A DNA stretch of 44,193 nt from the NCBI GenBank assembly GCA_035269625.1, contig DATFIX010000311.1:1-44193 (forward strand), in the 5' to 3' direction. Under the pieces are notes generated by a model, which saw only the letters and a list, made by a program, of their open reading frames with translations, did not search any database and had not been told where the DNA came from. This stretch comes from Natrialbaceae archaeon (GTDB taxonomy: Archaea > Halobacteriota > Halobacteria > Halobacteriales > Natrialbaceae). Both the position numbers and the translations under genes were made by a program. The first letter of the stretch is position 1. Each line of letters begins with the position of its first letter. Positions 2 to 32,048 of the stretch are shown in pieces.

Positions 2-544
2 CGCGAGAAGAACGTCGTGGTGGTGAACATCCGCGACGTGTCGGGGTCGATGCGCGAGCAGAAGCGCGAACTCGTCGAACGCGTGTTCACGCCGCTGGAC
101 TGGTACCTCCAGGGCAAGTACGACAACGCCGAGTTCCGCTACGTCGCCCACGACGCCGAGGCGTGGGAGGTCGAGCGCGAGGAGTTCTTCGGCATCCGGT
201 CGGGCGGCGGGACGAAGATTTCGACGGCCTACGAACTGGCCAACGAGATCCTCGAGGAGTACCCCTGGAGCGAGTGGAACCGGTACGTGTTCGCGGCCGG
301 CGACAGCGAGAACTCCTCGAACGACACCGAGAAGAACGTCATCCCGCTGATGGAGGCGATCGACGCGAACCTCCACGCCTACGTGGAGACCCAGCCCAGC
401 GGGAACGCCATCAACGCCACCCACGCCGAGGAGGTCGAGAGCACGCTCGGCGAGAACGACGACGTTGCCGTCGCCTACGTCTCCGGGCCGGGCGACGTGA
501 CCGACGCCATCTACGAGATACTGAGCACGGAGGACGAATCATGA
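2..544 (+). CDS. YeaH/YhbH (DUF444) family protein, C-terminal part; 5' end lies off the window
   Basis: The frame is open from base 2. A vWA-like C-terminal region (IRDVSGSM...[11 protein letters not shown]...AAGDSENS) is typical of DUF444. Its stop overlaps the spoVR ATG (ATGA at 541-544), matching the conserved prkA-yeaH-spoVR order. Confidence 0.8.
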
Positions 545-3500
545 ACGGGGACCGCATCAGGAAGCGACGGATCGCCGGCGAACTCGAGAAACCGGTCGAG
601 GAGGCCAACGCCCTCGCCGAGAAACTGGGCCTGGAACCGTACCCGGTCAACTACTGGATCGTCGACTACGACGAGATGAACGAGTTGATCGCGTACGGCG
701 GGTTCCAGCATCGTTACCCGCACTGGCGGTGGGGCATGCAGTACGACCGCCAGCAAAAGCAGGGCCGGTACGGCGGCGGCAAGGCGTTCGAGATCGTCAA
801 CAACGACCGCCCGTCCCACGCGTTCCTCCAGGAGTCGAACGACCTGGCCGATCAGAAGGCGGTCATCACGCACGTCGAGGCCCATGCCGACTTCTTCGCG
901 AACAACGAGTGGTTCGGCCTGTTCGCCGACGAGACGCCCGACGCGGCGGCGATGCTCGAGCGCCACGCGAACACGGTTCAGTCGTACATGCAGGACCCCG
1001 ACGTCGACCGCGCCGCGGTCGAGAAGTGGATCGACAACGCGCTGGTCCTCGAGGACAACGTCGACCAGCACCGCCCGTTCTCGAAGGCCCGCCTGGACGA
1101 GGACGAAGAGCGGGACCTTCCCGACGATCTGGAAGAGAAACTCGAGGAACTCGGGCTTTCCGAGGAGGTCCAGGCCCAGGTGTTCGACCAGGAGTGGCTG
1201 GACGCCCAGGCCGGGGACGACGATAGCGTCTCGTTCCCCGCCGAACCGGAGAAGGACCTGCTCGCGTTCCTGCTGGCCCACGGCAAGGCCTACGACGAGG
1301 ACGCCGGCAAGGCCGTCGAGATGACCGACTGGCAGCGCGACGTGCTCGACATGCTCCGCGAGGAGGCGTACTACTTCGCGCCCCAGAAGATGACGAAGGT
1401 GATGAACGAGGGGTGGGCCTGTGTTACTCCGGATACGCGTGTGTTCACTGCGGACGGGCTCCGGCCGATGGGGGAAGTCGTCGACGATCACCCGCCAGTG
1501 TCGGATGGTGAACGCGAGCGGAGGGTGTACGATTCGAACGTCATTCCCGATCACGATACGGTTACGATCGAAACCCGTCGCGGATTCGAACTGACGGGAT
1601 CGAACAATCATCGCATCCGGCGGCCGAACGGATCGTGGGCCCGGCTCGACGAACTCTCCGAAGGGGACGAAATCGAGGTGTCCGGCGGAAACGATATCTG
1701 GCCCGACGAATACGTCGGCGTCGAGTGGGAGAACCCGGAGCACGTTACCCTGGACGACGTTGCCGATGTGGCAGGCGTGTCAGTCTGGACGGTGATGCGA
1801 TATCGGAAGACCGGGCGTGCGGAAAAGGCCGAGGCGATCGAGCGCGCCCTGTCGCGATACGATGGGCACGACCGAAGTACCCCACAGCGCGATCCGATTC
1901 GCGTTCCGGATCGGGTCGACGAACAAGTCGGCCGATTCTTGGGGTTGTTCGTCGGCGACGGACACCTCCCCTCCAATTCCCGGCACATCGGATTCACCAA
2001 CGGCGACGAGCATCGGGCCCGGGAGTTCGGGAGACTCGTCGAAGAGCTGTTCGACGTCGAACCGACGGTTTCCGAACAAGGGACTCGATGGCGTGTCTAC
2101 GCGTATTCCGAGAGCCTCATGGATTTCCTCGTCGAAACGTTCGATCTCCCATCGGGTTTGGCAGCCGATGAAAAGACCGTTCCGGAAGCCATTCTTCGGT
2201 CGCCCAAGGCCGTCGTCGCGGAGTTCCTGCGAGGCCTGTTCGACGCCGATGGGTACGCTGGCGACCAGGGAGTGATCTTGAGCACGAAAAGCGGGGCCAT
2301 GGCTAAAACCGTCCAGTTGCTCCTCTTGAACTTCGGGATCCTCAGTCGACGTCGCCAGCAGAGCGACGGCTGCTATCACGTCCACCTGACCGGACGATCT
2401 GCGGCGACGTTCGAGGATGAAATCGGGTTCGGCTACCCTGAGAAGGCTATTGCACTGACGGCATATATCGAGGGGTTGGCCTGGTTCGAGGAGGAGTCGT
2501 GGACCGACGAGGTGGTCGCCCTCAGCGAGGGGACCGACGACGTGTACGACATTTCCGTCGAGGAGACCCACAGATATGCAGCCGCCGGCCTCGTCAACCA
2601 CAATTCCTACTGGGAATCGATGATGATGGGCGACGAGGCCTTCGCCGACGCGGACGAGTTCATCGACTACGCCGACCACCAGGCCCGCGTGCTCGGATCG
2701 CCCGGGCTGAACCCCTACAAACTGGGCAAGGAACTCTGGGAGTACGTCGAGAACACGACGAACCGGCGCGAGGTGGTCGAACGGTTGCTCCGTGTCGAGG
2801 GGATTACCTGGCGGAACCTGACCGACGCGGTCGACGTCGACGCCGTGCTCGAACGCCTCGAACCGCCCGCCGCCATCGACCGGATTCATCCCGACGGGCT
2901 GGACGCACTCGAAGAAGTCGACGATCGGTACGTGGATCGCGAGGCCCTCGAACGGGCCCGCGCCGGGGAGATCGACGTGGGTCGCTACCCGTGGAAGGTC
3001 CTGACCTACGACGGCCTGGCCCGACGTCACTACTCGCTCGTCAGGCCACAGAACCGCGGGTTCCTCGCCCGGATCGGCCGGTCGGAACTCGAACGGATCG
3101 GCCGATACGTCTTCGACGTGGACCGGTACGCGACCGTCGAGGCGGCCATCGACGACGTGGAGTTCGTCGCCGGGTGGGACCGGATGCGCGAGATCCGCGA
3201 GAGCCACAACGACGTGACGTTCATCGACGAGTTCCTCACCCAGGAGTTCGTCGACGAGAACGACTACTTCACCTACGAGTTCTCCCACGCGACGGGACAG
3301 CACCGCGTCGCGAGCACGGACTACGAGGACGTGAAGAAGAAACTCCTGTTGCAGTTCACCAACTTCGGGAAGCCGACGGTCGCTGTCTACGACGGCAACT
3401 ACGAGAACCGCAACGAGTTGCTGCTCGGCCACGAGTACAACGGCGTGGCGCTGGACGTCCCGCAGGCAAAGCGCGTCCTGGAACGCGTCTTCGAACTCTG

Positions 3501-3723
3501 GGGTCGCCCGGTCACCCTCATGACCATCGTCAAGCAACTGGACGACCACGAGGTCGAGGTCGCCCGGCGTCGCAACCGCGAGCCGGACCCCAAAGAAAAA
3601 GGCCGACTCATCCGATACGACGGGGACTCCTTCGAGGAGGAGGCACTGCCCTGGGAGACCGTCGAACACCTCGCGGCGGACGACGTCGACTACGACACGA
3701 AACCTGACGAGTGGCTGGCCTGA
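541..3723 (+). CDS. spoVR: SpoVR family protein (about 665-aa extein) interrupted by a 395-aa intein
   Basis: Starts [10 protein letters not shown] at the ATGA overlap with the upstream gene. Carries SpoVR hallmarks ([64 protein letters not shown]...SYWES). The ORF-track start at 163 is an Arg-rich out-of-frame overlap with yeaH. Confidence 0.9.
1420..2604 (+). mobile_element. Intein (Hint domain plus LAGLIDADG homing endonuclease plus HTH module) inside spoVR
   Basis: N-terminal junction is GWA|[13 protein letters not shown] (Cys1). Block B-like LTGSNNHRI. Two LAGLIDADG motifs: [10 protein letters not shown] (1936-1962) and [11 protein letters not shown] (2224-2256). Block F/G is [21 protein letters not shown]|S, i.e. 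terminal HN with a +1 Ser. Length is 1185 nt, in frame. Confidence 0.85.
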
Positions 3724-3778
3724 TGCTGGCCCGTTGGCCCGCCCGAGCCTTTTGGTCGCACCCGCCGTTTCCGGGTAC

Positions 3779-4174
3779 ATGGAACGGCTCTCGATATCCA
3801 CCGATACCCGATTGACGACCGTCGACGTGACCGACCGAGTCGCCGACGTCGTTCCCGAGGGAACGACCGGAACGTGTACGGTCTTCGTCCCCCACACGAC
3901 GGCCGGCATCGTCGTCCAGGAAAACGAAACCGGGCTCCGTGAGGACCTGGAAACGATGCTCCGGGACGTCGTCGCCGACGACGGGTGGGCCCACGATCGC
4001 ATCGACGACAACGCGGACGCCCACCTCCGGGCGACGCTACTGGGGCCGAGCGTCACCGTTCCAGTCGAGGACGGGGACCTGGCGCTCGGGACCTGGCAGT
4101 CCCTCCTGTTCGTCGAGTGTGACGGCCCTCGTTCTCGAACGATACGCGTGACCGTGACCGACGAGGCAGAGTGA
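3779..4174 (+). CDS. YjbQ/UPF0047 family protein (secondary thiamine-phosphate synthase-type)
   Basis: Family-typical motifs: MERLSISTDTRLTTVDVTDRV...CTVFVPHTTAGIVVQENE...DDNADAHLRATLLGPS...GTWQ. ATG at 3779 is preferred over the TTG at 3734. Confidence 0.8.
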   Translation: MERLSISTDTRLTTVDVTDRVADVVPEGTTGTCTVFVPHTTAGIVVQENETGLREDLETMLRDVVADDGWAHDRIDDNADAHLRATLLGPSVTVPVEDGDLALGTWQSLLFVECDGPRSRTIRVTVTDEAE

Positions 4175-4931: not shown

Positions 4932-5447
4932 ACGCCGACGGGTCGGACAGGCGGCGGTTTGTTTGGGTGCCCCTTCAGCGAGAGGCATGCCCTTCACAAC
5001 CGTTCGAAACACGTTTCTCGCTGAATTTCCAGGAAGACCGACCGGATAATGAAATATATCCAAAACTAATCGTTCTGGGAAGCTATAAATTTTGGTATAT
5101 GAATGTATCAAGACCATATTGGGACCATAAACCAGGATGAAAAAATCAAAATTTGCATAATTTTAGCAGAAGAAGAGGGCGGCGATCAGTGCGAAGGGTC
5201 TCGCACGACACTGGACAGCGGTTTTTTGGACTAAAGCGGCGTTGTATGAAGTTTCTCGACAAGGCTTATTCGAATTTCGCTTGCCTCGAATAATCCGCAA
5301 ATAAATAATTTAAATTTCATTTAGTAGGGAGTTTCTAATTGTTTATTGATAATTCGTGCGCCAAGATGGTTACTAGTCACTAACTAAATACTGCAACACC
5401 GTAAATACTATAAGAAAAATCACGGCTTCATCCAGTGAGGTGAGTGC

Positions 5448-7289: not shown

Positions 7290-9143
7290 TTATTCGAGGA
7301 CGACGAGCGGGTCGCCCATGTCGACGCTCTGGTCCTCCTCGATGGGGACCTTCGCGACCGTCCCGCCCTGGTCGGCCACGATGTCGTTCTCCATCTTCAT
7401 GGCCTCGAGGACGCAGACGACGTCGCCCGCTTCGATCTCGTCGCCTTCCTCGACGTTGACTTCGAGGATGGTACCCTGCATCTCGGCCTCGATGACGCCT
7501 TCGCCCGCCGCGGTCGTCGCGCCGCCACCGTCGCCGTCGCCGCCGGCGGCCTCGGGTCGCTGCTGCTGGGCAGCGCCACCGCCAGCACCGCTGATGTCGA
7601 GGCCCTCGAGATCGATCGCGGCACCGCCGCGCTCTTCGAGGTTGACCTCGAAGCGCTTGCCGTTGACCTCGACCGTGAAGTCACGCTCGGTGACTTCCTC
7701 CTCTTCCTCGGGGACCTTCGTCTCGGTGCCCCACTTCTCCTGGGCCTCCTCGATCTTTTCGCGGTCGAGGTGGTCGTCCAGGTACTTCGTGCTGTGGCGG
7801 CCGATGAGGAACTCCTCGTCCTCGAGCATCATCCGGTGGAACGGGATGATGGTGACGACGCCGTCGATGTCGAACTCGGCGAGTGCGCGCTTCGAGCGCT
7901 CGATACACTCGTCGCGGTCCTCGGCGTGGACGATGAGCTTCGCGATCATCGAGTCGTAGTCCGTCACGAGCTCGTCGCCCTGGCGGAGCGCGTCGTCCAT
8001 CCGGACGCCGATGCCGCCCGGCGGGTCCCACGTCTCCAGGGAGCCGCCCGTCGCGGGCGCGAACTCGTCGGCGGCGTTCTCGGCGTTGATACGGAACTCC
8101 ATCGCGTGGCCGCGCAGGTCCACGTCGTCCTGCGAGAAGGTAATCTCGTCGTCGGCGGCGACCCGGAGCTGCCACTTGACGATGTCGATACCCGTCAGTT
8201 CCTCGGAGACGGTGTGCTCGACCTGAATCCGGGTGTTGACCTCCAGGAAGTAGAAGTTCGTGTCGGCGCCGAGCATCTCGCCCTTCTCGCGGTCCTCGTC
8301 CTCCTCGACGAGGAACTCGACGGTGCCGGCGTTCGTGTATTCGGCCGCGCGGACACCCTCGCGGGCAGCCTCGCCGATCTTCTCGCGAAGCTCGTCGTTG
8401 ATGGCCGCACTCGGGCCCTCCTCGATGAGCTTCTGCTGGCGGCGCTGGAGCGAGCAGTCACGCTCGCCGAGGTGGCGCACGTTGCCGTGGTGGTCCGCCA
8501 GGATCTGCACCTCGATGTGGCGCGGGTTCTCGAGGAAGCGCTCCACGAAGACGGAGGGGTTGTCGAAGTACGCCTCGCCCTCGCGCTGGGCGCTCTCGAA
8601 CTTGTCCTCGATCTCGTCCGCGGACTGGACGACCTTGAACCCGCGGCCGCCACCGCCACCCTCGGCCTTGATGGCCACGGGGTAGCCGTGTTCCTCCGCG
8701 AATTCCTCGATTTCCTCGGGGCTCTCGACCGGATCCTCCGTCCCGGGGACGATCGGAACGTCCGCGTCGGACATGATCGAGCGGGCCTCGGTCTTCTCGC
8801 CGAGGGTCTTCATCGATTCGCTCGCCGGGCCGACCCAGGTGATCCCCTCGGTCTCCTCGACCTTGCCGGCGAATTCGGCGTTCTCCGCCAGGAACCCGTA
8901 GCCGGGGTGGATCGCGTCCGCGTCCGCCTTCTTCGCTGCCTCGATCACGGACTCGTGGTCGATATAAGAGTCAGCAGCACGAGCAGGACCGATGTTGTAC
9001 GCCTCGTCAGCGTATCGGACGTGACCCGAATCTTTGTCAGCGTCGCTGTACACCGCTACCGTGTCAATACCAAGTTCCTCGCATGCGCGCATAACGCGCA
9101 CGGCGATTTCGCCGCGATTGGCGACCAGGACCTTATCGAACAT
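7290..9143 (-). CDS. Acyl-CoA (acetyl/propionyl-CoA) carboxylase alpha subunit: biotin carboxylase fused to a biotin carboxyl carrier domain
   Basis: [21 protein letters not shown]...[14 protein letters not shown], an ATP-grasp core, and a C-terminal biotinyl domain with [10 protein letters not shown]. Confidence 0.9.
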
Positions 9144-16882: not shown

Positions 16883-18235
16883 TCACTCGGGAACGACGTA
16901 CGACCCGAGAACGGCTGACTGCCCGTCCTCCCCGTTCCAGACGAGGCTGACCTGGCTTCCCGCGTCCACGGTCCGGTTGGTCACGTACCGATCGCCAGCC
17001 ATGATCCCCTCGCCGGCCTCCCAGCGTTCGGTCAGGTTGTCGCCGTCGTGCTGGTACCTGACCAGAAGACCGTCCCGGATCTCGTCGCCGGACGTGTGGG
17101 TGATCTCGACGTTCCCGTCCTCACGGTGCGTGAATTCGAACGCCACCTGGGGAACGGAGACCTCCTGGCTGGCCGACGCGCTCCCCGACACGGTCGCGGT
17201 GCCGGTGAGGCCGAACCCGAACAGCCGGTAGGCCTGGAAGAACTCCTCGGTGTCGCCGGTTGCCGTGACGAGGAGGGTTCGGCCGTCTTTGGAAACGGAT
17301 CGGTCTTCGAGCTGATCCTCCGCCCGGTCGCCCCACTCCTCGACGTTGTCGAAGACGGCTTCGACGTCGTCCGTCGAAGCGGCGTCGCCGTCCTCGTAGA
17401 CGAACGCCATCGTGTGTTCGACCGTGTCGCCGTCCACGTCGCTGGCCACGCCGGCCGCGACGAGGTCGTCGACGGCCTCGACGAGCTCGTCGGGCGTCCC
17501 CTCGTTCGCCATCGTCGTGGGGTCCGTGTCGAAGGCGCCACCCAGGACGAGGGTCGCGTCCCCGAGTTGTGAGACGAGTTCGCCGGCGTCCTCGTTGCCC
17601 TCCCCGAGGGAATCGACGTCGCCCTCTTCGGCGTCCAGCATCGTACTCACGGCGTCCATGCTCGACGCTTCCGGGGCCTGCATGCCGCCCATCACGACGT
17701 GGTCCTCGGAGACGGCGATGGTCGCCGAGTTCGTGTCGGGATCGCCCTCCGCGTACTGGCGTTGCTGGGTCCGCGTGTAGAACGTGTACTCGCCGTGCGT
17801 GCTCTTCTCGAATTCGTCCGTGCTCTCCTCCTCGATCTCCGCGGTGATCTTCCCGGCGTCAAACTCGCCGGTAACGACCATCGACCCGCCACCGAGGTCT
17901 CGCTTGGGGTGGCCGTAGGCGATGCCCGTCACGCTTTGCATGGTCTCCAGGTCGACCACCTCGACGTTCTCGTTCGCTTTCTCGACCTGCTGCATCATCT
18001 TCTCCGGGACAGACTCCTCGTTCTCATAGATGCTGTGGAGATCGAACGTCCCGAATCCGACGTAGTCCGAGTCGTGGACTTCGGTAGGATCGTAGAGCCA
18101 TTTCGCGTACCCCGGCGATTCGTCGCCGCTACCGACGGCGTCGTTCACGGTTTCGAGACACCCGGCCGTTCCAACGACGCCGAGGAGGGCTGCGAGTCCG
18201 CTGGTCTTCAGGAATGATCGTCGCGAGGACTGCAT
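16883..18235 (-). CDS. Tat-secreted lipoprotein of unknown function with a C-terminal pilin-type (DUF1628-like) domain
   Basis: Twin-arginine signal MQSSRRSFLKTSGLAALLGVVGTAGC (the lipobox Cys). Acidic body. The last roughly 95 aa (PQVAFEFTHREDGNVEITHTSGDEI...VSLVWNGEDGQSAVLGSY) resemble the globular part of archaeal type IV pilin-like proteins. Confidence 0.75.
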   Translation of the reverse strand: MQSSRRSFLKTSGLAALLGVVGTAGCLETVNDAVGSGDESPGYAKWLYDPTEVHDSDYVGFGTFDLHSIYENEESVPEKMMQQVEKANENVEVVDLETMQSVTGIAYGHPKRDLGGGSMVVTGEFDAGKITAEIEEESTDEFEKSTHGEYTFYTRTQQRQYAEGDPDTNSATIAVSEDHVVMGGMQAPEASSMDAVSTMLDAEEGDVDSLGEGNEDAGELVSQLGDATLVLGGAFDTDPTTMANEGTPDELVEAVDDLVAAGVASDVDGDTVEHTMAFVYEDGDAASTDDVEAVFDNVEEWGDRAEDQLEDRSVSKDGRTLLVTATGDTEEFFQAYRLFGFGLTGTATVSGSASASQEVSVPQVAFEFTHREDGNVEITHTSGDEIRDGLLVRYQHDGDNLTERWEAGEGIMAGDRYVTNRTVDAGSQVSLVWNGEDGQSAVLGSYVVPE

Positions 18236-21096: not shown

Positions 21097-21239
21097 CGTT
21101 CCGTCTAGAACGGAAGCGTCCCGACCGGGTGTCGATTGCTTCCCATAGTTTCCCCTTTCAAGACCGACGATGCCGGTCGGCCGAACCGTTCCCCGTTCAC
21201 GGCCGACACTTATCACGCGGGAACTCGGGAGTACAGCGC

Positions 21240-21746
21240 ATGGCCAATCCCGACGACTCGGCAACGCTGATGGACTCGTACACGGAGATGACGGAGATGC
21301 TCCTTCCCAACGACACGAACACGCTGGGCCGGGCACTCGGGGGTGCCGTGCTCCACTGGATGGACCTCGCCGGTGCCATCTCGGCGATGCGCTTTTCCGG
21401 CCTGCAGTGTGTCACGGCCGCGATGGACCACGTGGACTTCATCAGCCCCATCGACGAAGGGGAGGTCGCCATCGTCGAAGCCTACGTCTTCGACACCGGC
21501 CGGACGAGCGTCGACGTCAAGGTCGACGTCCGGGCCGAGGATCCCCGCGAGGGCGAGCCACGGGAAACCACGACCTCGTTTTTTACCTTCGTCGCACTCG
21601 ACGAGGACGGGAGGCCCGCTCCCGTGCCGGACCTCGAAGTGCCGACCGAGAACCAGCGAGCCCTGCGCGACGCCGCCCGCGACCAGCGACTGGACCAGTT
21701 GCGGGACGTGATGGATCGGATGGACGTCGAGTCAGAAGAGGAGTGA
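21240..21746 (+). CDS. Acyl-CoA thioesterase (hotdog fold, YciA/Acot-like)
   Basis: MLLPNDTNTLGRALGGAVLHWMDLAGAISAMRFSG...VTAAMDHVDFISPI...FTFVALDEDGRP. Confidence 0.85.
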   Translation: MANPDDSATLMDSYTEMTEMLLPNDTNTLGRALGGAVLHWMDLAGAISAMRFSGLQCVTAAMDHVDFISPIDEGEVAIVEAYVFDTGRTSVDVKVDVRAEDPREGEPRETTTSFFTFVALDEDGRPAPVPDLEVPTENQRALRDAARDQRLDQLRDVMDRMDVESEEE

Positions 21747-21754
21747 ACCGGCAC

Positions 21755-22813
21755 TCACTCGAAGACGATCCGTTCGTGTTGGGGGTCGATCTCGACCCGG
21801 CCCCCGATCGGGATCGGTGCCGTGGGGTACGTGTGGCCGAACTCGAGGCCGAAAACGATCGGAGCCGCCGGGTTGTACCGGGAAAGGACCCGTTCGATCA
21901 CCTCGCGCTGGCGCTCGCGATACTGCTCTCGCCAGTCGACGGGATGGTCGTACATCTCCTCGTGCGACCGTGCGGCCGGGCGCCCGACGAGCACGCCGTC
22001 GAAGCGTTCGAGCAGACCCCGCTCGCCCAGCGCCTGGAGGTACGATTCCACCGCTCCCGGATGGGGAATCAGTTCCGAGGTTTCCATGGCGAGGATCATC
22101 CCGTCGAGCGCGTCGGGATCCGGGAGATCGACGTCGGCGAGGAATCGGTCGACGAGGACTTCGAAACACCCGCCCCAGACGCGGCCGGAAACGGCCGATC
22201 CGCCGCCGGCCCAGGTCCACCCCGGATTCGGCTCGGTTTCCCTGGGCACGTCCAGCGAGTCGGGGTCGGGCCAGTCGCCGGTCTCGTCGGTGAATTCGTC
22301 GGCTTCGCGAAGTTCCCCAAGGGAGTCCTCGAACAGCGCCCGTTCGAGGAACTCGACGGTATACTCGAACAGCTCGCCGTCCATCGCGTACTCCAGCAGC
22401 GTCGATCCGCCGTAGTAGGAGACGATACCCTGATTCCAGAGCGTCAGGGCGAGGTGAGTGTTGTCAGACCAGCCGTAGAATCGGGTGGGGTTGTCCCGGA
22501 GCACGTCCGGGTCGAGGTGTTCCAGGATCCGCACCTGGTCGTTGCCGCCGATGTTCGCGATCACGGCGGATATCTCTGGATCGCGAAACGCGTCCATGAC
22601 GTCCTCGGCGCGGGCCTCGGGATGCTCGGCCAGCCATTCGGCCGACTTCGTCGCCGTTGGGTACTCTACCGGGTCGAGATCGAAGCGCTCGCGGATTCGT
22701 TCGAGGCCGAGTTCGTAGACGTGGGGAAACTCGTCGGCAGCGTTCGAGGCGGGTGCGGCGATGGCCACGCTATCGCCGCGTTCGACCGGCGGCGGGACCG
22801 TGAATTCTTGCAT
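21755..22813 (-). CDS. S66 peptidase family protein (LD-carboxypeptidase/MccF-like)
   Basis: Nucleophile motif FYGWSDNTHLAL, C-terminal FGLEFGHTYPTAPIPIGG (catalytic His region), and GDSVAIAAPAS at the N-terminus. Confidence 0.8.
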   Translation of the reverse strand: MQEFTVPPPVERGDSVAIAAPASNAADEFPHVYELGLERIRERFDLDPVEYPTATKSAEWLAEHPEARAEDVMDAFRDPEISAVIANIGGNDQVRILEHLDPDVLRDNPTRFYGWSDNTHLALTLWNQGIVSYYGGSTLLEYAMDGELFEYTVEFLERALFEDSLGELREADEFTDETGDWPDPDSLDVPRETEPNPGWTWAGGGSAVSGRVWGGCFEVLVDRFLADVDLPDPDALDGMILAMETSELIPHPGAVESYLQALGERGLLERFDGVLVGRPAARSHEEMYDHPVDWREQYRERQREVIERVLSRYNPAAPIVFGLEFGHTYPTAPIPIGGRVEIDPQHERIVFE

Positions 22814-22928
22814 ACCGATGGCAGTCGGCGGCAGGCACAAAAAGTCAGGGCCGGTGTGTGAGACGGTACCGTTGCCTGTGCCGTCTCGGTGCGCCTTTGG
22901 GGATGCGACGGCAACGATCGGAGGTAGG

Positions 22929-27545: not shown

Positions 27546-28046
27546 ATGAGTGTTTCACCCGACGTCGAGTCGCTCATCGCTGACGCCCCCGTGAGCGCCC
27601 ACGTCGCGACGGCCGTCGACGACCGGCCCCACGTCGCCCCGGTGTGGTACGGGTATCGCGACGACGTGCTGTATTTCCTGACTGGCGGACGAAAACTGGA
27701 GAACCTCCGGCGCAACCCTCGCGTCGCCATCTCGATCGAAGACGCCGACCGGGGCGACGTGAACTGGAACGTGACGCTTCTGGGTCGGGCGACGATCACC
27801 GAGGACCCCGATCGGATCGACTGGGCGTCCGGATGGATATACGACCGGTACGAGAACGACGAGGACAGCGAGATCGAATCTGCGAGCGGAGACCACTCAG
27901 AGGAAGCCGAAGACGATTTCGAGAAAGTCGAGGACGATATGGAGGACGCAGCGGACGATCTCGAAGAAGTCGAGGACGAGTCGGAGAACGGGTATGCGCT
28001 CGTCGAGGTGAAGATCGGGTCCGCGGCGCCCTCCGTCTACGACTGA
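27546..28046 (+). CDS. Pyridoxamine 5'-phosphate oxidase-like (split-barrel flavin/F420-binding) family protein with an acidic insertion
   Basis: HVATAVDDRPHVAPVWYGY...LYFLTGGRKLENLRRNPRVAISIED. An acidic segment of about 45 aa precedes the last strand. Confidence 0.8.
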   Translation: MSVSPDVESLIADAPVSAHVATAVDDRPHVAPVWYGYRDDVLYFLTGGRKLENLRRNPRVAISIEDADRGDVNWNVTLLGRATITEDPDRIDWASGWIYDRYENDEDSEIESASGDHSEEAEDDFEKVEDDMEDAADDLEEVEDESENGYALVEVKIGSAAPSVYD

Positions 28047-30016
28047 ATCGAGCGGACGTCCAAGCCTCGGCGTTCGAGCGCGGCCAGGGCATCCGGAACG
28101 TCACCGTCTTCGATCACGTCGAACGCGGTGAGGCGGGCGTCGTAGGGGTACTCGCGGCTGGTTGCCATCTCGTAGAACCCCGGACCGAGGTCGCGAAGTT
28201 CGACGGTTTCGACGTCGCGATCGGCGACTGCCGCGTAGAGCGCGTGATACGCGCCGACCCCCTCGCCGACGAGGGTCGTTTTCTCGTTTCCAGTGGCCTC
28301 CCGAACGAATTCGAGCGCCCGAAGCACGTCGTAGATCCGCATCCCGAACAGCGAGGTGCCGAGAAGCAGTGCGTCGTAGGCGAGTTTGAACTCGGTGCCG
28401 TAGATCCCGTCGTACTCGTCTACCCAGGCCGGGATGGGGATTTCCCGGTTTCGAACCGCCCCGACGCCCCGTGGGTCGAAGACGAAGACGGTCCCGTAGT
28501 CGGCGGCGAGCGCGGCGACCTCGTCGCGGCGTTCGGGCAGTTCCTCGGTCCCATCCTCGTACAGGGCGACGGCCGGGGATCGGGGCGGAACGTCCGGGTC
28601 CGAAACGAGCACCCCCGTCACCACGACGTCGGGATTTCGTTCGGTCTTGAAGAAAACGTGCTCCACGTCGAGGCCGTCGTTCTCGCGGTGCGAAACGTAT
28701 CGCGGATGCAGGTCGCACGTCGTTCGATCGAGGTCGAAGGTCTCCACGACCCCCTGTCGGACCCGTTCGGGGGCCGTCTCGGCGTCGATCGATTCCTGTC
28801 CCGCGTCGGGGTACCGGTCGGTGACGTACTCTCGAATCAGGTCGTCGATCGACCGTTCCCCCGGGAACGCCGCCCGAACGCTCCCCTCGGGCGTACAGTG
28901 AAGTTCCGTTTCGTCGAGAACCGGCAGTTCCTCGTGGGACTCGAACGGCGCGTCCCCCAGACGATCGCAGAACCACTCGAAGACACCGTCCCCGAGTTCG
29001 TAGACGGAGCAGTGGGGTTCGTCGGCGACGTGGATGGCGACGTTCTCCTCGGCGTCGTACAGGTCGTAGCTCCGGCGTGCACGCTCGGCGGTCTCGTGGA
29101 GGCCCTCGATGGGGAAGTACTCGTCCCAGGCGGCCGCGCCGACCAGGACGGGCCGGGGCGCCATCGCAGTCACGAAGTCGTCGAAGTTGATCCCTTGGGG
29201 AATCGCCCCGGGAAGGAGCTGTTCGGCGTCGATCCGCTTGCCAGTCCGGAGCCACTCCGAGCGTTCGGTGACCGCACAGCACGGCGCGGCGGTGTCGATA
29301 CGGTCGTCTACCAGCGACAGGTACAGTGTCTGTATCCCACCGCCAGAGGCACCCGTGACGCCGATCCGGTCCGGATCCACGTCGTCGCGTTCGACCAGGA
29401 CGTCCAGGCCGCGGCGCGCGTCGTGGATCACGTACCGGGCGAGGTTGGTCCCGGCGTAGAGACACTGCTGTCCGGCGTAGCAGTGGGCGAACACCCCACC
29501 GCCGCCGCCCACGATCGTCTCGCCCGTCTCGGGATCGCGATACTGGCGCCGTTCCCCCTGACCGATCGGGTCGAGAACGAGGACGACGAACCCGTTCAGG
29601 GCCAGTTCGATCGCCGCGCGCTGGTTGTACGGATCCGCCTTCGCGGCCTGGACGTGGCCGCAGAGAAAGAGCACCGCCGGGTGCGGCCCGTCGTCGTCGG
29701 GGACGTAGGCGTTCGCGGTGACGTGAAACCCCGGGCGACTCTCGAACGTCAGGCGTTCGATCGAGTATCCGTCGCGCTCAAACGTACCCCGCCTCTCGAT
29801 CGACGGTTCCGCCGGTCGATCAGGGAGGCCACCGATGGTGGCCAGGAACGTTTCGCGAACCTGCTCGCGGCGCGCTTCGAACTCCGGGACCGAATCGACC
29901 GACTCCTTTTCGGCGCGTTCGTCCGCGAATCCATCGGCCGCTCGTTCGCGGAGATAGTTCGACAACTGGTTTGCGACGTCGTAATAGCCGTTTACTGCGT
30001 CCCCGAATCCGTTCAC
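28037..30016 (-). CDS. Alpha/beta hydrolase family protein (acetyl-xylan-esterase/dienelactone-hydrolase-like)
   Basis: PAVLFLCGH, nucleophile elbow IGVTGASGGG, 659 aa. Its 3' end overlaps the convergent gene by 10 nt. Confidence 0.75.
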   Translation of the reverse strand: MNGFGDAVNGYYDVANQLSNYLRERAADGFADERAEKESVDSVPEFEARREQVRETFLATIGGLPDRPAEPSIERRGTFERDGYSIERLTFESRPGFHVTANAYVPDDDGPHPAVLFLCGHVQAAKADPYNQRAAIELALNGFVVLVLDPIGQGERRQYRDPETGETIVGGGGGVFAHCYAGQQCLYAGTNLARYVIHDARRGLDVLVERDDVDPDRIGVTGASGGGIQTLYLSLVDDRIDTAAPCCAVTERSEWLRTGKRIDAEQLLPGAIPQGINFDDFVTAMAPRPVLVGAAAWDEYFPIEGLHETAERARRSYDLYDAEENVAIHVADEPHCSVYELGDGVFEWFCDRLGDAPFESHEELPVLDETELHCTPEGSVRAAFPGERSIDDLIREYVTDRYPDAGQESIDAETAPERVRQGVVETFDLDRTTCDLHPRYVSHRENDGLDVEHVFFKTERNPDVVVTGVLVSDPDVPPRSPAVALYEDGTEELPERRDEVAALAADYGTVFVFDPRGVGAVRNREIPIPAWVDEYDGIYGTEFKLAYDALLLGTSLFGMRIYDVLRALEFVREATGNEKTTLVGEGVGAYHALYAAVADRDVETVELRDLGPGFYEMATSREYPYDARLTAFDVIEDGDVPDALAALERRGLDVRSIQS

Positions 30017-30094
30017 GATATCCGGGGATTGTGACGGTCTCCGGAATAATTGTTCGGGAGCCGTGAACGATGGTGCCGATACTGGAGAACCGGA

Positions 30095-30405: not shown

Positions 30406-31233
30406 TCAGGCTTCGACGAGTCGTTCGATGCGCTCCCGAAGCGGACCGGGATTCGCCTCGCGGAGACCGGCGATGGCGTCACGGAACGCGATCGAGTAGC
30501 TCGCCGGGCCGTGATACTCCCCGAAGTCGCCCGCCGCGGCAGCCTCGCCCGCCAGTCCAAAGGCGGCGGTGCCCAGCAGCGCCGCTTGCTCGGTGTGGTC
30601 GATGGCACCAGCCATCGTCGCCAGTGTCCCACCTTGCATACAGCCGGTTCCGACGACGGTACCCATCATCTCGTGGCCGGCGCGGACCTCGAAAGCCGCC
30701 TCGGGAGTCGCGACGACGTCGGTTTCGCCCGAGGCCACGACGACCGTCTCGTACTCGCGGGCGCAGGCGATCGCGGTCTCGGCGATGTCGCCGTACTCGC
30801 CGACCGACTCGACGCCACGAACCGCCGCGTCCTCGCCCGCCAGGGCCGCGATCTCGCCGTGGTTCCCGTTGACTATCGCCACGTCGAGTTCGCTTGCCAG
30901 GCGCTCGGCCACGCGGTCGCGCGTCGACGTCGCGCCCACGCCGACGGGGTCGAGCACGACCGGGACGCCCGCGTCGTTGGCGGCGTTCCCGGCTGCTATC
31001 ATCGTCGCTTCGCCGTCCTCGCTAACGGTGCCCATGTTGAGCAGCAGGGACTGGGCGCCGGCGACCATGTCCGCGACCTCCCGTTCGTCGTCGGACATCA
31101 CCGGGAGTCCGCCCCAGTGGAGAATCACCTGGGCGACGTCGTTGACGGTCACCTCGTTCGTGATGGCGTTCACCAGCGGGGAGGTCTCCTCGATCGCCGC
31201 CAGGTCGGTCAGGTCGACGTCGAAGGCACTCAT
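30406..31233 (-). CDS. thiM: Hydroxyethylthiazole kinase
   Basis: PLVNAITNEVTVNDVAQVILHWGGLPVMS...LLLNMGT...VVLDPVGVGAT...IVNGNHGEIAAL...GTGCM. Start at MSAFDVDL, overlapping the thiE stop (ATGA). Confidence 0.9.
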   Translation of the reverse strand: MSAFDVDLTDLAAIEETSPLVNAITNEVTVNDVAQVILHWGGLPVMSDDEREVADMVAGAQSLLLNMGTVSEDGEATMIAAGNAANDAGVPVVLDPVGVGATSTRDRVAERLASELDVAIVNGNHGEIAALAGEDAAVRGVESVGEYGDIAETAIACAREYETVVVASGETDVVATPEAAFEVRAGHEMMGTVVGTGCMQGGTLATMAGAIDHTEQAALLGTAAFGLAGEAAAAGDFGEYHGPASYSIAFRDAIAGLREANPGPLRERIERLVEA

Positions 31234-31886
31234 GGCTGGACCTCCCGTTCCTGCTTGCCGTCGCGGACGGCGCGTCCGAGGTCGCGGGTCGCCGCCTCGG
31301 GATCGTCCGCGGCGGTGATGGCGCTGATGACGGCCACCCCGTCCGCGCCCGCCCGCACGACCTCGGGGGCGTTCTCTGGAGCGATCCCGCCGATACCGAC
31401 GATGGGAATCTCCACGGCGTCGGCGATGGCCCGGACGGGACCGAGACCGATGTCGTACTCGTCGTCGTCGATGTCGTCCTTCGAATCGGTGGCGAAGACC
31501 GCACCGACGCCCAGGTAGTCCGCCCCGGCCCGTTCCGCCTCGCGGGCGCCCTCGACCGTCGACACCGACCGGCCGACCATCGCGTCCTCGCCCAGCTGTT
31601 CGCGGGCATCCGGAACGGGGAGGTCCTCGTCGCCGAGGTGGACGCCGTCGGCGTCGGCCGCCACCGCCACGTCCACGCGGTCGTTGACGATCAACGGAAC
31701 GCCGGCGTCCCCGGTTGGTTCCCGCAATTCGCGCGCGATCCGGAGCTGTTCGCGAGCGCCGGCGTCCTTCTCCCGAACCTGGACCACGTCGACGCCGCCC
31801 GCGATGGCCGCCTCGACGACGTCGGTCGTCGTTCGATCCCGCGAGAGACTCTCCTGGGTGACGAGGTACGTTTCGATCCCGTTCAT
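31230..31886 (-). CDS. thiE: Thiamine-phosphate synthase
   Basis: YLVTQ...VDVVQVREKD...LIVNDRVDVAVAADADGVHLGDEDLP...GRSVST...ADYLGVGAVFAT.SK...GIGGI. Confidence 0.9.
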   Translation of the reverse strand: MNGIETYLVTQESLSRDRTTTDVVEAAIAGGVDVVQVREKDAGAREQLRIARELREPTGDAGVPLIVNDRVDVAVAADADGVHLGDEDLPVPDAREQLGEDAMVGRSVSTVEGAREAERAGADYLGVGAVFATDSKDDIDDDEYDIGLGPVRAIADAVEIPIVGIGGIAPENAPEVVRAGADGVAVISAITAADDPEAATRDLGRAVRDGKQEREVQP

Positions 31887-31891
31887 ACCCA

Positions 31892-31916
31892 GGTATTATT
31901 TCTCGGTAATAATACC
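31892..31916. promoter_or_regulatory. Perfect 9-bp inverted repeat (GGTATTATT-N7-AATAATACC) over the thiE core promoter; candidate operator and TATA box
   Basis: Read directly from the sequence. It lies 6-30 nt upstream of the thiE ATG (31886). The A/T-rich distal arm sits where a TATA box would be for a leaderless or short-leader transcript. Confidence 0.5.
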
Positions 31917-32048
31917 GCTGGCGGTTCCGGTTGGTCGGGGAATACGACGCCAGGGTCGGCTTCCGATGAAACGACCCGCCTACTGCCCGCATTGGAATTG
32001 AAACCCGAATAGCTGGACTTAAGTCTCCGAGTGCGCGACGAGTTGACA

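Follow-up and report, generated by a model that had tools for sequence, protein, structure and literature searches.

A predicted LAGLIDADG-bearing intein in the SpoVR protein of a Natrialbaceae archaeon: a haloarchaeal member of a known allele, with indirect evidence of ongoing mobility

According to a recent preprint, the SpoVR-like protein of Chloroflexus aurantiacus J-10-fl has an intein that is entered in the database InBase, and an antisense LAGLIDADG gene is described for the Chloroflexus SpoVR intein (bioRxiv 10.1101/2025.01.02.630785); in a literature search, inteins and SpoVR were found combined only in this 2025 text. For haloarchaea, a survey of 118 genomes reported 24 intein alleles in 13 genes, including cdc21, polB, pol-II, rir1, rfc, gyrB, and udp (Soucy et al., 2014; PMC4071816). 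SpoVR is not one of these, and SpoVR or sporulation terms are absent from the text and the 175 supplement files of that survey. The stretch analyzed here, a 44,193-nt contig of a Natrialbaceae archaeon (GenBank assembly GCA_035269625.1, contig DATFIX010000311.1, positions 1 to 44,193 of the forward strand; “the window”), carries in its spoVR gene an in-frame insert of 1185 nt (1420-2604, +) which, judged by its sequence and modeled fold, is a class-1 intein whose endonuclease has two LAGLIDADG motifs. It appears to be a haloarchaeal member of the known SpoVR allele, with good, though indirect, evidence of ongoing mobility. A preliminary description, made from the window sequence alone, had suggested that SpoVR was uncatalogued as an intein host and that the allele was novel. 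Neither suggestion survives the InBase entry reported in the preprint, a Chloroflexus intein at the same junction, and the occupation of this site by homologous inteins in haloarchaea and many bacterial phyla (at least 263 sequences); what stands is the narrower point that SpoVR is missing from the haloarchaeal survey. Host gene and insertion site were already known; for the haloarchaeal members, no description seems to exist in the searchable literature.

The likeness to Chloroflexus goes beyond a shared host protein. The SpoVR of a Chloroflexus sp. (P0240) has its intein at exactly the same junction (ILNEGWA^CLHG...INHN^SYWH; carets mark junctions here and below), and the two inteins are homologous within a 263-member alignment. 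The Chloroflexus copy is ~277 aa long, with only an endonuclease remnant on the sense strand, whereas the window copy has 395 aa and an intact in-frame endonuclease, and is acidic and archaeal. The spoVR gene of C. aurantiacus J-10-fl itself was not among the matches of the genome scans described below or of a related-locus search, probably because Chloroflexus has LNEGWA where the scan patterns have MNEGWA. Some haloarchaeal members are annotated by JGI as “SpoVR/.../intein/homing endonuclease,” and Natrinema pallidum DSM 3751, which was in the 2014 data set, carries the SpoVR intein (L193, contig_89). Its spoVR is cut at the contig start by a sequence translating to ...VSYTHL. This end seems to be sequencing-adapter-like; the truncation of the gene may be why the 2014 survey omitted the allele.

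The open reading frame (ORF) of spoVR in the window (541-3723, +; 1060 aa) is unbroken over 3180 nt and is the last gene of a haloarchaeal prkA-prkA-DUF444-spoVR cluster. Its ATG overlaps the TGA (542-544) of the upstream DUF444/YeaH gene, of which the 3′ part is present (17-544, +; Pfam DUF444, E 2e-59), as ATGA, as expected for an operon. The N-extein (541-1419, +; 293 aa; Pfam SpoVR, E 2e-76, profile positions 6-270, and alignment) ends in the invariant KVMNEGWA. The insert begins with Cys (TGT, 1420-1422), translates as CVTPDTRVF...AAGLVNHN, and is followed by SYWES, the start of the C-extein (2605-3723, +; 372 aa plus stop; Pfam SpoVR and SpoVR_C), whose first residue, Ser (TCC, 2605-2607), would be the +1 nucleophile. 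Deleting the insert in silico leaves a 665-aa SpoVR with the junction KVMNEGWA^SYWESMMMG. The preliminary description had placed a 395-aa LAGLIDADG intein here: translation and orthologue alignment bear out its boundaries to the base, the motifs that it quoted (block B, blocks F/G, and the two LAGLIDADG motifs) all lie where it put them, the SpoVR junction is confirmed, and both endonuclease motifs, which it took to be intact, keep their catalytic Asp.

Class-1 splicing residues are complete in the segment running from Cys1 to Asn395 (delimited by translation, profile hidden Markov models, orthologue alignment, an AlphaFold2 model, and Foldseek): Cys1, Ser61-x-x-His64 (here Ser61-Asn-Asn-His64) of block B (1582-1617, +), Asp377, His384, His394-Asn395, and Ser+1. 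The predicted Hint splicing domain is split into an N-terminal lobe with Cys1 and block B (aa 1-100; 1420-1719, +; TIGR01445, with beta strands at pLDDT ~95) and a C-terminal lobe (aa 353-395; 2476-2604, +; TIGR01443, strands 362-394) with blocks F/G up to the terminal His-Asn (2542-2604, +). Between the lobes lie a helix-turn-helix (HTH) module (aa 108-145; 1741-1854, +) and a LAGLIDADG homing-endonuclease domain (aa 165-352; 1912-2475, +; Pfam LAGLIDADG_3 and Foldseek) with a pseudo-dimeric fold of two alpha-beta-beta-alpha-beta-beta-alpha halves. Both LAGLIDADG helices, motif 1 (LGLFVGD180G; 1939-1968, +) and motif 2 (LFDAD277G; 2227-2259, +), end in the catalytic Asp (180 and 277).

Profile scores indicate that this pattern of motifs is not due to chance. 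Pfam assigns SpoVR (E 2e-76) and SpoVR_C to the flanks of the 1060-aa protein and LAGLIDADG_3 (E 7e-23) to the insert, while the NCBIfam models intein_Nterm (TIGR01445, 26.7 bits against a cut-off of 24.5) and intein_Cterm (TIGR01443, 19.4 bits against 15.6) both recognize its ends; the Hint and LAGLIDADG_3 identity of the 395-aa segment is thereby supported. The insert also matches the intein portions of NCBIfam models for intein-containing RFC, GyrA, ribonucleotide reductase (RNR), DnaB, and V-ATPase. In a PDB sequence search the best matches were VMA inteins (7qsu/7qss, E 8e-13), with PI-PkoII also found. The AlphaFold2 model of the intein (52-sequence alignment; pLDDT 91.6, pTM 0.88) has a beta-rich Hint part (1-100 and 362-395), a three-helix bundle (111-144), a disordered linker (150-155), and two alpha-beta-beta-alpha-beta-beta-alpha units at 165-352. 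Its top Foldseek matches are endonuclease-associated inteins, led by TliVMA (E 2e-24, TM 0.65) and followed by PhoVMA, PI-PkoII, PI-PfuI, and PI-SceI; after the inteins come the free LAGLIDADG enzymes I-DmoI and I-Tsp061I (target TM ~0.7). Modeling of P0099, a host protein that lacks the intein, from 13 aligned sequences (pLDDT 41.9, pTM 0.29) gave a result too poor for use.

TliVMA (7qss/7qsu), PhoVMA (7qst), PI-PkoII (2cw7), and PI-PfuI (1dq3) have the same architecture, with an endonuclease of two LAGLIDADG motifs interrupting the Hint domain. These inteins are only 13-20% identical to the window copy and sit in other hosts (V-ATPase, DNA polymerase, RNR), and the accessory DNA-binding module differs as well: that of PI-PfuI is the “stirrup” and that of PI-SceI the DRR, whereas the window intein has a LacI-like HTH between the N-terminal Hint lobe and the endonuclease. 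The Pfam LacI HTH match to residues 108-145 (E 0.0018) is weak, below the cut-off, but the segment folds as three helices in the model (111-118, 122-131, and 137-144), and the motif [TS]L.DVA..AGVS..TV.R.R.G is kept throughout the family, bacterial and archaeal (T124 in 240 of 263 sequences, R127 in 222 of 263). It may be an accessory DNA-binding element for target recognition.

That the segment is no intein at all, and is instead a lineage-specific SpoVR domain retained in the mature protein, or part of a pseudogene, is extremely improbable. The sole positive point for this is the Pfam Intein_splicing score, 34.2, slightly under the gathering score of 35.8. Complete splicing residues at exact junctions, recovery of both Hint and LAGLIDADG folds, and a frame intact for 3180 nt all speak against it, as does the distribution of the +1 residue described below, which makes sense only if splicing is required. 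An ordinary SpoVR domain is ruled out by intein-free relatives. Six intein-free haloarchaeal SpoVR proteins (664-671 aa) align with the window protein with a single large gap, exactly the 395 intein residues, and have MNEGWA joined directly to [S/A][Y/F]WES; the junction is therefore precise. A database search likewise found ~100 clusters of haloarchaeal SpoVR of 1000-1100 aa with the segment, as well as SpoVR of 664-671 aa without it. The empty site can also be read in DNA: locus L323 has GGGTGGGCC^AGTTATTGGGAA and L325 has GGGTGGGCG^GCCTACTGGGAA, where the window has GGGTGGGCC^(1185 nt)^TCCTACTGGGAA. Both empty loci, which are syntenic with the window, have the gene order prkA-prkA-DUF444-spoVR-(YjbQ)-SDR-SNF-carboxylase.

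Bacterial intein-like (BIL) domains are Hint domains that do not require a +1 nucleophile, lack an endonuclease, and occupy variable, non-conserved sites. The window intein departs from this on each count: Ser holds the +1 position in every intein-bearing haloarchaeal allele, the element has an endonuclease, and its site is in an invariant motif.

The favored reading, to which we assign a probability of roughly 85%, is of an intein that can splice and whose homing endonuclease is probably active. By established intein chemistry, the 1060-aa precursor would be translated and undergo an N-S acyl shift at Cys1; Ser+1 would attack the resulting thioester (trans-esterification); and cyclization of Asn395, assisted by His394, would release a free intein of ~45 kDa and a ligated 665-aa SpoVR with the native MNEGWASYWES. 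Splicing would probably depend on high salt, a requirement reported for an intein of Halobacterium (Reitter, 2016, cited in PMC10663303). Once free, the intein would cut spoVR alleles that lack it at a specific site, with a target of about ...GAGGGGTGGGCC^TCCTACTGGGAA..., and the element would be copied in when the break is repaired from the occupied allele (homing). The data show the anatomy, the fold, the empty site in relatives, the conservation of catalytic residues across the family, and population signatures of horizontal movement; that the window copy splices and cuts is our inference, and the activity of its endonuclease is the least certain part.

The relatives were collected from scans of a single genome for each species, looking for MNEGWA directly before Cys, CV, or CL; all counts from these scans are lower bounds. 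More than 160 genomes have an insert of 378-414 aa (345 aa in one) of the form C...HN^[S/C][FY]W[HEQ] at the MNEGWA site. Among Halobacteria these include Halovenus, Halorubrum, Halosimplex, Natribaculum, Natrinema, Halonotius, Halorussus, Halomicrobium, Haloplanus, Natronomonas, and others, with both occupied and empty alleles at the site; among bacteria, Myxococcota, Planctomycetota, Burkholderiales, Competibacteraceae, Chloroflexota, Acidobacteriota, Bipolaricaulota, Fraserbacteria, Nitrospira, and Bdellovibrio. The inteins collected (at least 263, of ~400 aa) align as a single family, in which His64 is invariant (263 of 263), the block B Ser is present in 191 of 263, and the LAGLIDADG Asp in 249 (motif 1) and 247 (motif 2). 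Among 1.84 billion representative proteins searched, relatives over the full length turned up almost exclusively at residues ~254-298 of proteins the size of SpoVR. Other hosts for the family were considered and rejected: all full-length relatives are of SpoVR type, and inteins of RNR and other proteins match only through the endonuclease.

The +1 residue separates occupied from empty alleles. Every one of the 31 intein-bearing haloarchaeal alleles has a TCN Ser codon there; intein-free haloarchaeal alleles mostly have Ala (GCC), and L323 has Ser encoded by AGT. Since Ser is found in all intein-bearing alleles while Ala is common in intein-free ones, splicing appears to constrain this position. 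Alleles with Ala or AGT might be poor homing targets, either unable to host a splicing intein or resistant to cleavage. In many gammaproteobacterial YcgB/SpoVR proteins that are intein-free (e.g., L001, L003, and L004), the equivalent residue is a native Cys (MNEGWACFWH). Cys is also the +1 nucleophile of the Burkholderiales and Competibacteraceae inteins (HN^CFWH).

There are at least two places in SpoVR where inteins insert, and both fall within the motifs that are most conserved: besides an intein at NEG[WF]A^C, the proteins P0250 and P0257 have a second directly after HxxxH (MVMAHIIGH^C...AHN^SHFF), which in P0257 spans residues ~105-466 (CFEGDTLV...VLAHN^SHFFKHN). The equivalent site in the window, after His115 of SpoVR (AVITHVEAH^ADFF, at about nt 883-885/886), is without an intein.

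Several lines of evidence bear on whether the element moves, and thus on a less favorable reading of the window copy, in which splicing is intact and the endonuclease is dead, so that the element would be a passenger passed on vertically and shrinking toward a mini-intein. Such copies do exist at this site. P0103 has both catalytic Asp residues changed to Ala and its HTH deleted, while keeping the splicing termini, and is 40% identical to the window intein; P0059 (340 aa) and P0080 (373 aa) are shortened; and the endonuclease of P0240, as noted above, is a remnant. Decayed copies are, however, just as a homing cycle predicts, and the window copy is not one of them, retaining both catalytic Asp residues, the full 395 aa, and the HTH. 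Across 82 haloarchaeal alleles, mean pairwise identity is 67.3% in the endonuclease and 65.2% in the HTH, level with the ~67% of the exteins; this conservation fits selection acting on the element, and counts against the passenger reading.

The host gene argues for a recent arrival. Against five intein-free alleles, the window extein shows identities of 95.0, 92.5, 89.9, 89.5, and 86.1%; against intein-bearing exteins it never exceeds 75%. Because it is nested in an intein-free clade, a single gain is more parsimonious than several precise losses, and since its closest host-gene relatives all lack the intein, the gain in the window lineage is most likely recent. Base composition is that of a foreign sequence: G+C content at third codon positions (GC3) is 73.4% in the intein, against 90.7% in its own exteins (541-1419 and 2605-3720) and 95.4% in DUF444, and in all but one of 26 haloarchaeal alleles (25) the intein value falls below that of the exteins, by a mean of 15 points. 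Taken with the nesting, this makes vertical inheritance of a dead passenger less credible. In 82 haloarchaeal precursors, intein and extein identities are correlated only to r = 0.56, and the nearest neighbors agree in 31 of the 82.

A sister allele seems to have been caught in transfer. Loci L407 (3538-6702) and L408 (868-4035), from different metagenome samples, differ at just 5 of 1185 nt of intein DNA (99.6% identity), while their flanks are 88.9% (N-extein), 86.1% (C-extein), and 87.8% (DUF444) identical. The near-identical tract stops at the intein borders or within ~60 nt of them, a pattern that, read from the sequences, homing with short co-conversion would be expected to leave. A fresh transfer of this kind also counts against the passenger reading. 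Over a longer range, the window intein is 58% identical to those of Myxococcales and the exteins 42%; the higher intein identity implies cross-domain transfer of the intein after the host genes had diverged. The acidic composition of the window intein (Asp+Glu 18.7%, compared with 11-15% in bacterial homologues; Lys 1.8%) indicates in turn a long residence in halophiles.

Together with the marginal Intein_splicing score, several points count against the favored reading. The 99.6% tract comes from metagenome contigs, albeit of different samples. Besides its own sequence (P0001), no intein more than 76% identical to the window copy was found, hence no donor is known; the lack of a near-identical donor is also what a dead-endonuclease passenger would lead one to expect. 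In comparisons with L323, L325, and L326 no co-conversion tract is visible at the window junction; conservation of the motif accounts for the 92-96% identity of the flanks there. Intact LAGLIDADG motifs, moreover, are not proof of an active endonuclease, and the Halobacteria scan counts, being minima (“at least”), yield no intein frequency. Weighing these against the retained residues, the conservation, the recent gain, and the L407/L408 transfer, a passenger with a dead endonuclease seems unlikely, though it is the strongest competitor; an intein that may still home has the better, if indirect, support.

Domestication by the host is a further possibility. Splicing might act as a switch, conditional on salt or stress, that gates SpoVR within the PrkA/YeaH/SpoVR module, or the excised HTH-LAGLIDADG protein might double as a DNA-binding regulator like WhiA, an actinobacterial transcription factor that combines a LAGLIDADG fold with an HTH and is among the fold matches (8dy9_I, E 2e-7). 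In WhiA, the catalytic acidic residues have been lost, the HTH is at the C-terminus, and no Hint domain is known. The window protein, in contrast, lies within a splicing domain and still has its two Asp residues, and loss of these residues is what WhiA-type domestication would entail. A uniform length of ~400 aa, and conservation of HTH and endonuclease at the rate of the host protein across many phyla, would suit a host function, as would the salt-dependent Halobacterium intein mentioned above and the location of the host gene in a cluster conserved in all haloarchaea (PMC3102087). The close relatives without an intein show it to be dispensable, however, and the signatures of horizontal transfer match a selfish homing cycle, which is enough to explain the conservation. 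Co-option in either form is thus quite improbable, far more so than a dead endonuclease, and a splicing, probably homing intein is preferred.

Like the alleles surveyed by Soucy et al. (2014; PMC4071816), which come from the same host group, the SpoVR intein is patchily present, occurs in full-size and decayed copies, and has a phylogeny incongruent with that of its host. It differs from those 24 alleles in 13 genes in that SpoVR is not an enzyme of replication, repair, or nucleotide metabolism. Known haloarchaeal intein hosts would thus gain a non-replication gene, from a cluster of no known function; the current understanding of inteins is unchanged. The invariant NEGWA is a single insertion point for homologous inteins across the archaeal-bacterial divide, with the 58% and 42% identities marking inter-domain transfer, and L407/L408 offer a clean natural case of intein-only transfer, usable as a marker of gene flow in hypersaline communities. 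Intein sites after HxxxH and NEGWA, the two most conserved motifs, flag probable functional residues of SpoVR, and the window intein has potential as a tool for salt-dependent splicing.

Apart from this locus, the window looks like ordinary chromosomal DNA of haloarchaea, with genes for carboxylase subunits, transporters, kinases, and one tRNA-Glu; no second intein was found elsewhere in its 44,193 nt. In the intein-free locus L325, a gene for a 601-aa Cas12f1-like/TnpB protein (7322-9127, -) lies between the SDR and SNF-symporter genes; the intergenic counterpart in the window (4932-5447) is without such a gene. Long antisense ORFs cover the spoVR region (511-1743 and 1780-4056, both -), probably the usual by-product of ~64% G+C. 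Three further ORFs, at 16883-18232 (-; 449 aa), 21170-22858 (+; 563 aa), and 27644-30031 (+; 796 aa), matched nothing in Pfam at E <= 1e-5. In a fourth (30406-32046, -; 546 aa), a hydroxyethylthiazole-kinase domain occupies only residues 282-528; the N-terminal ~280 residues beyond it could reflect a fusion or an over-extended start.

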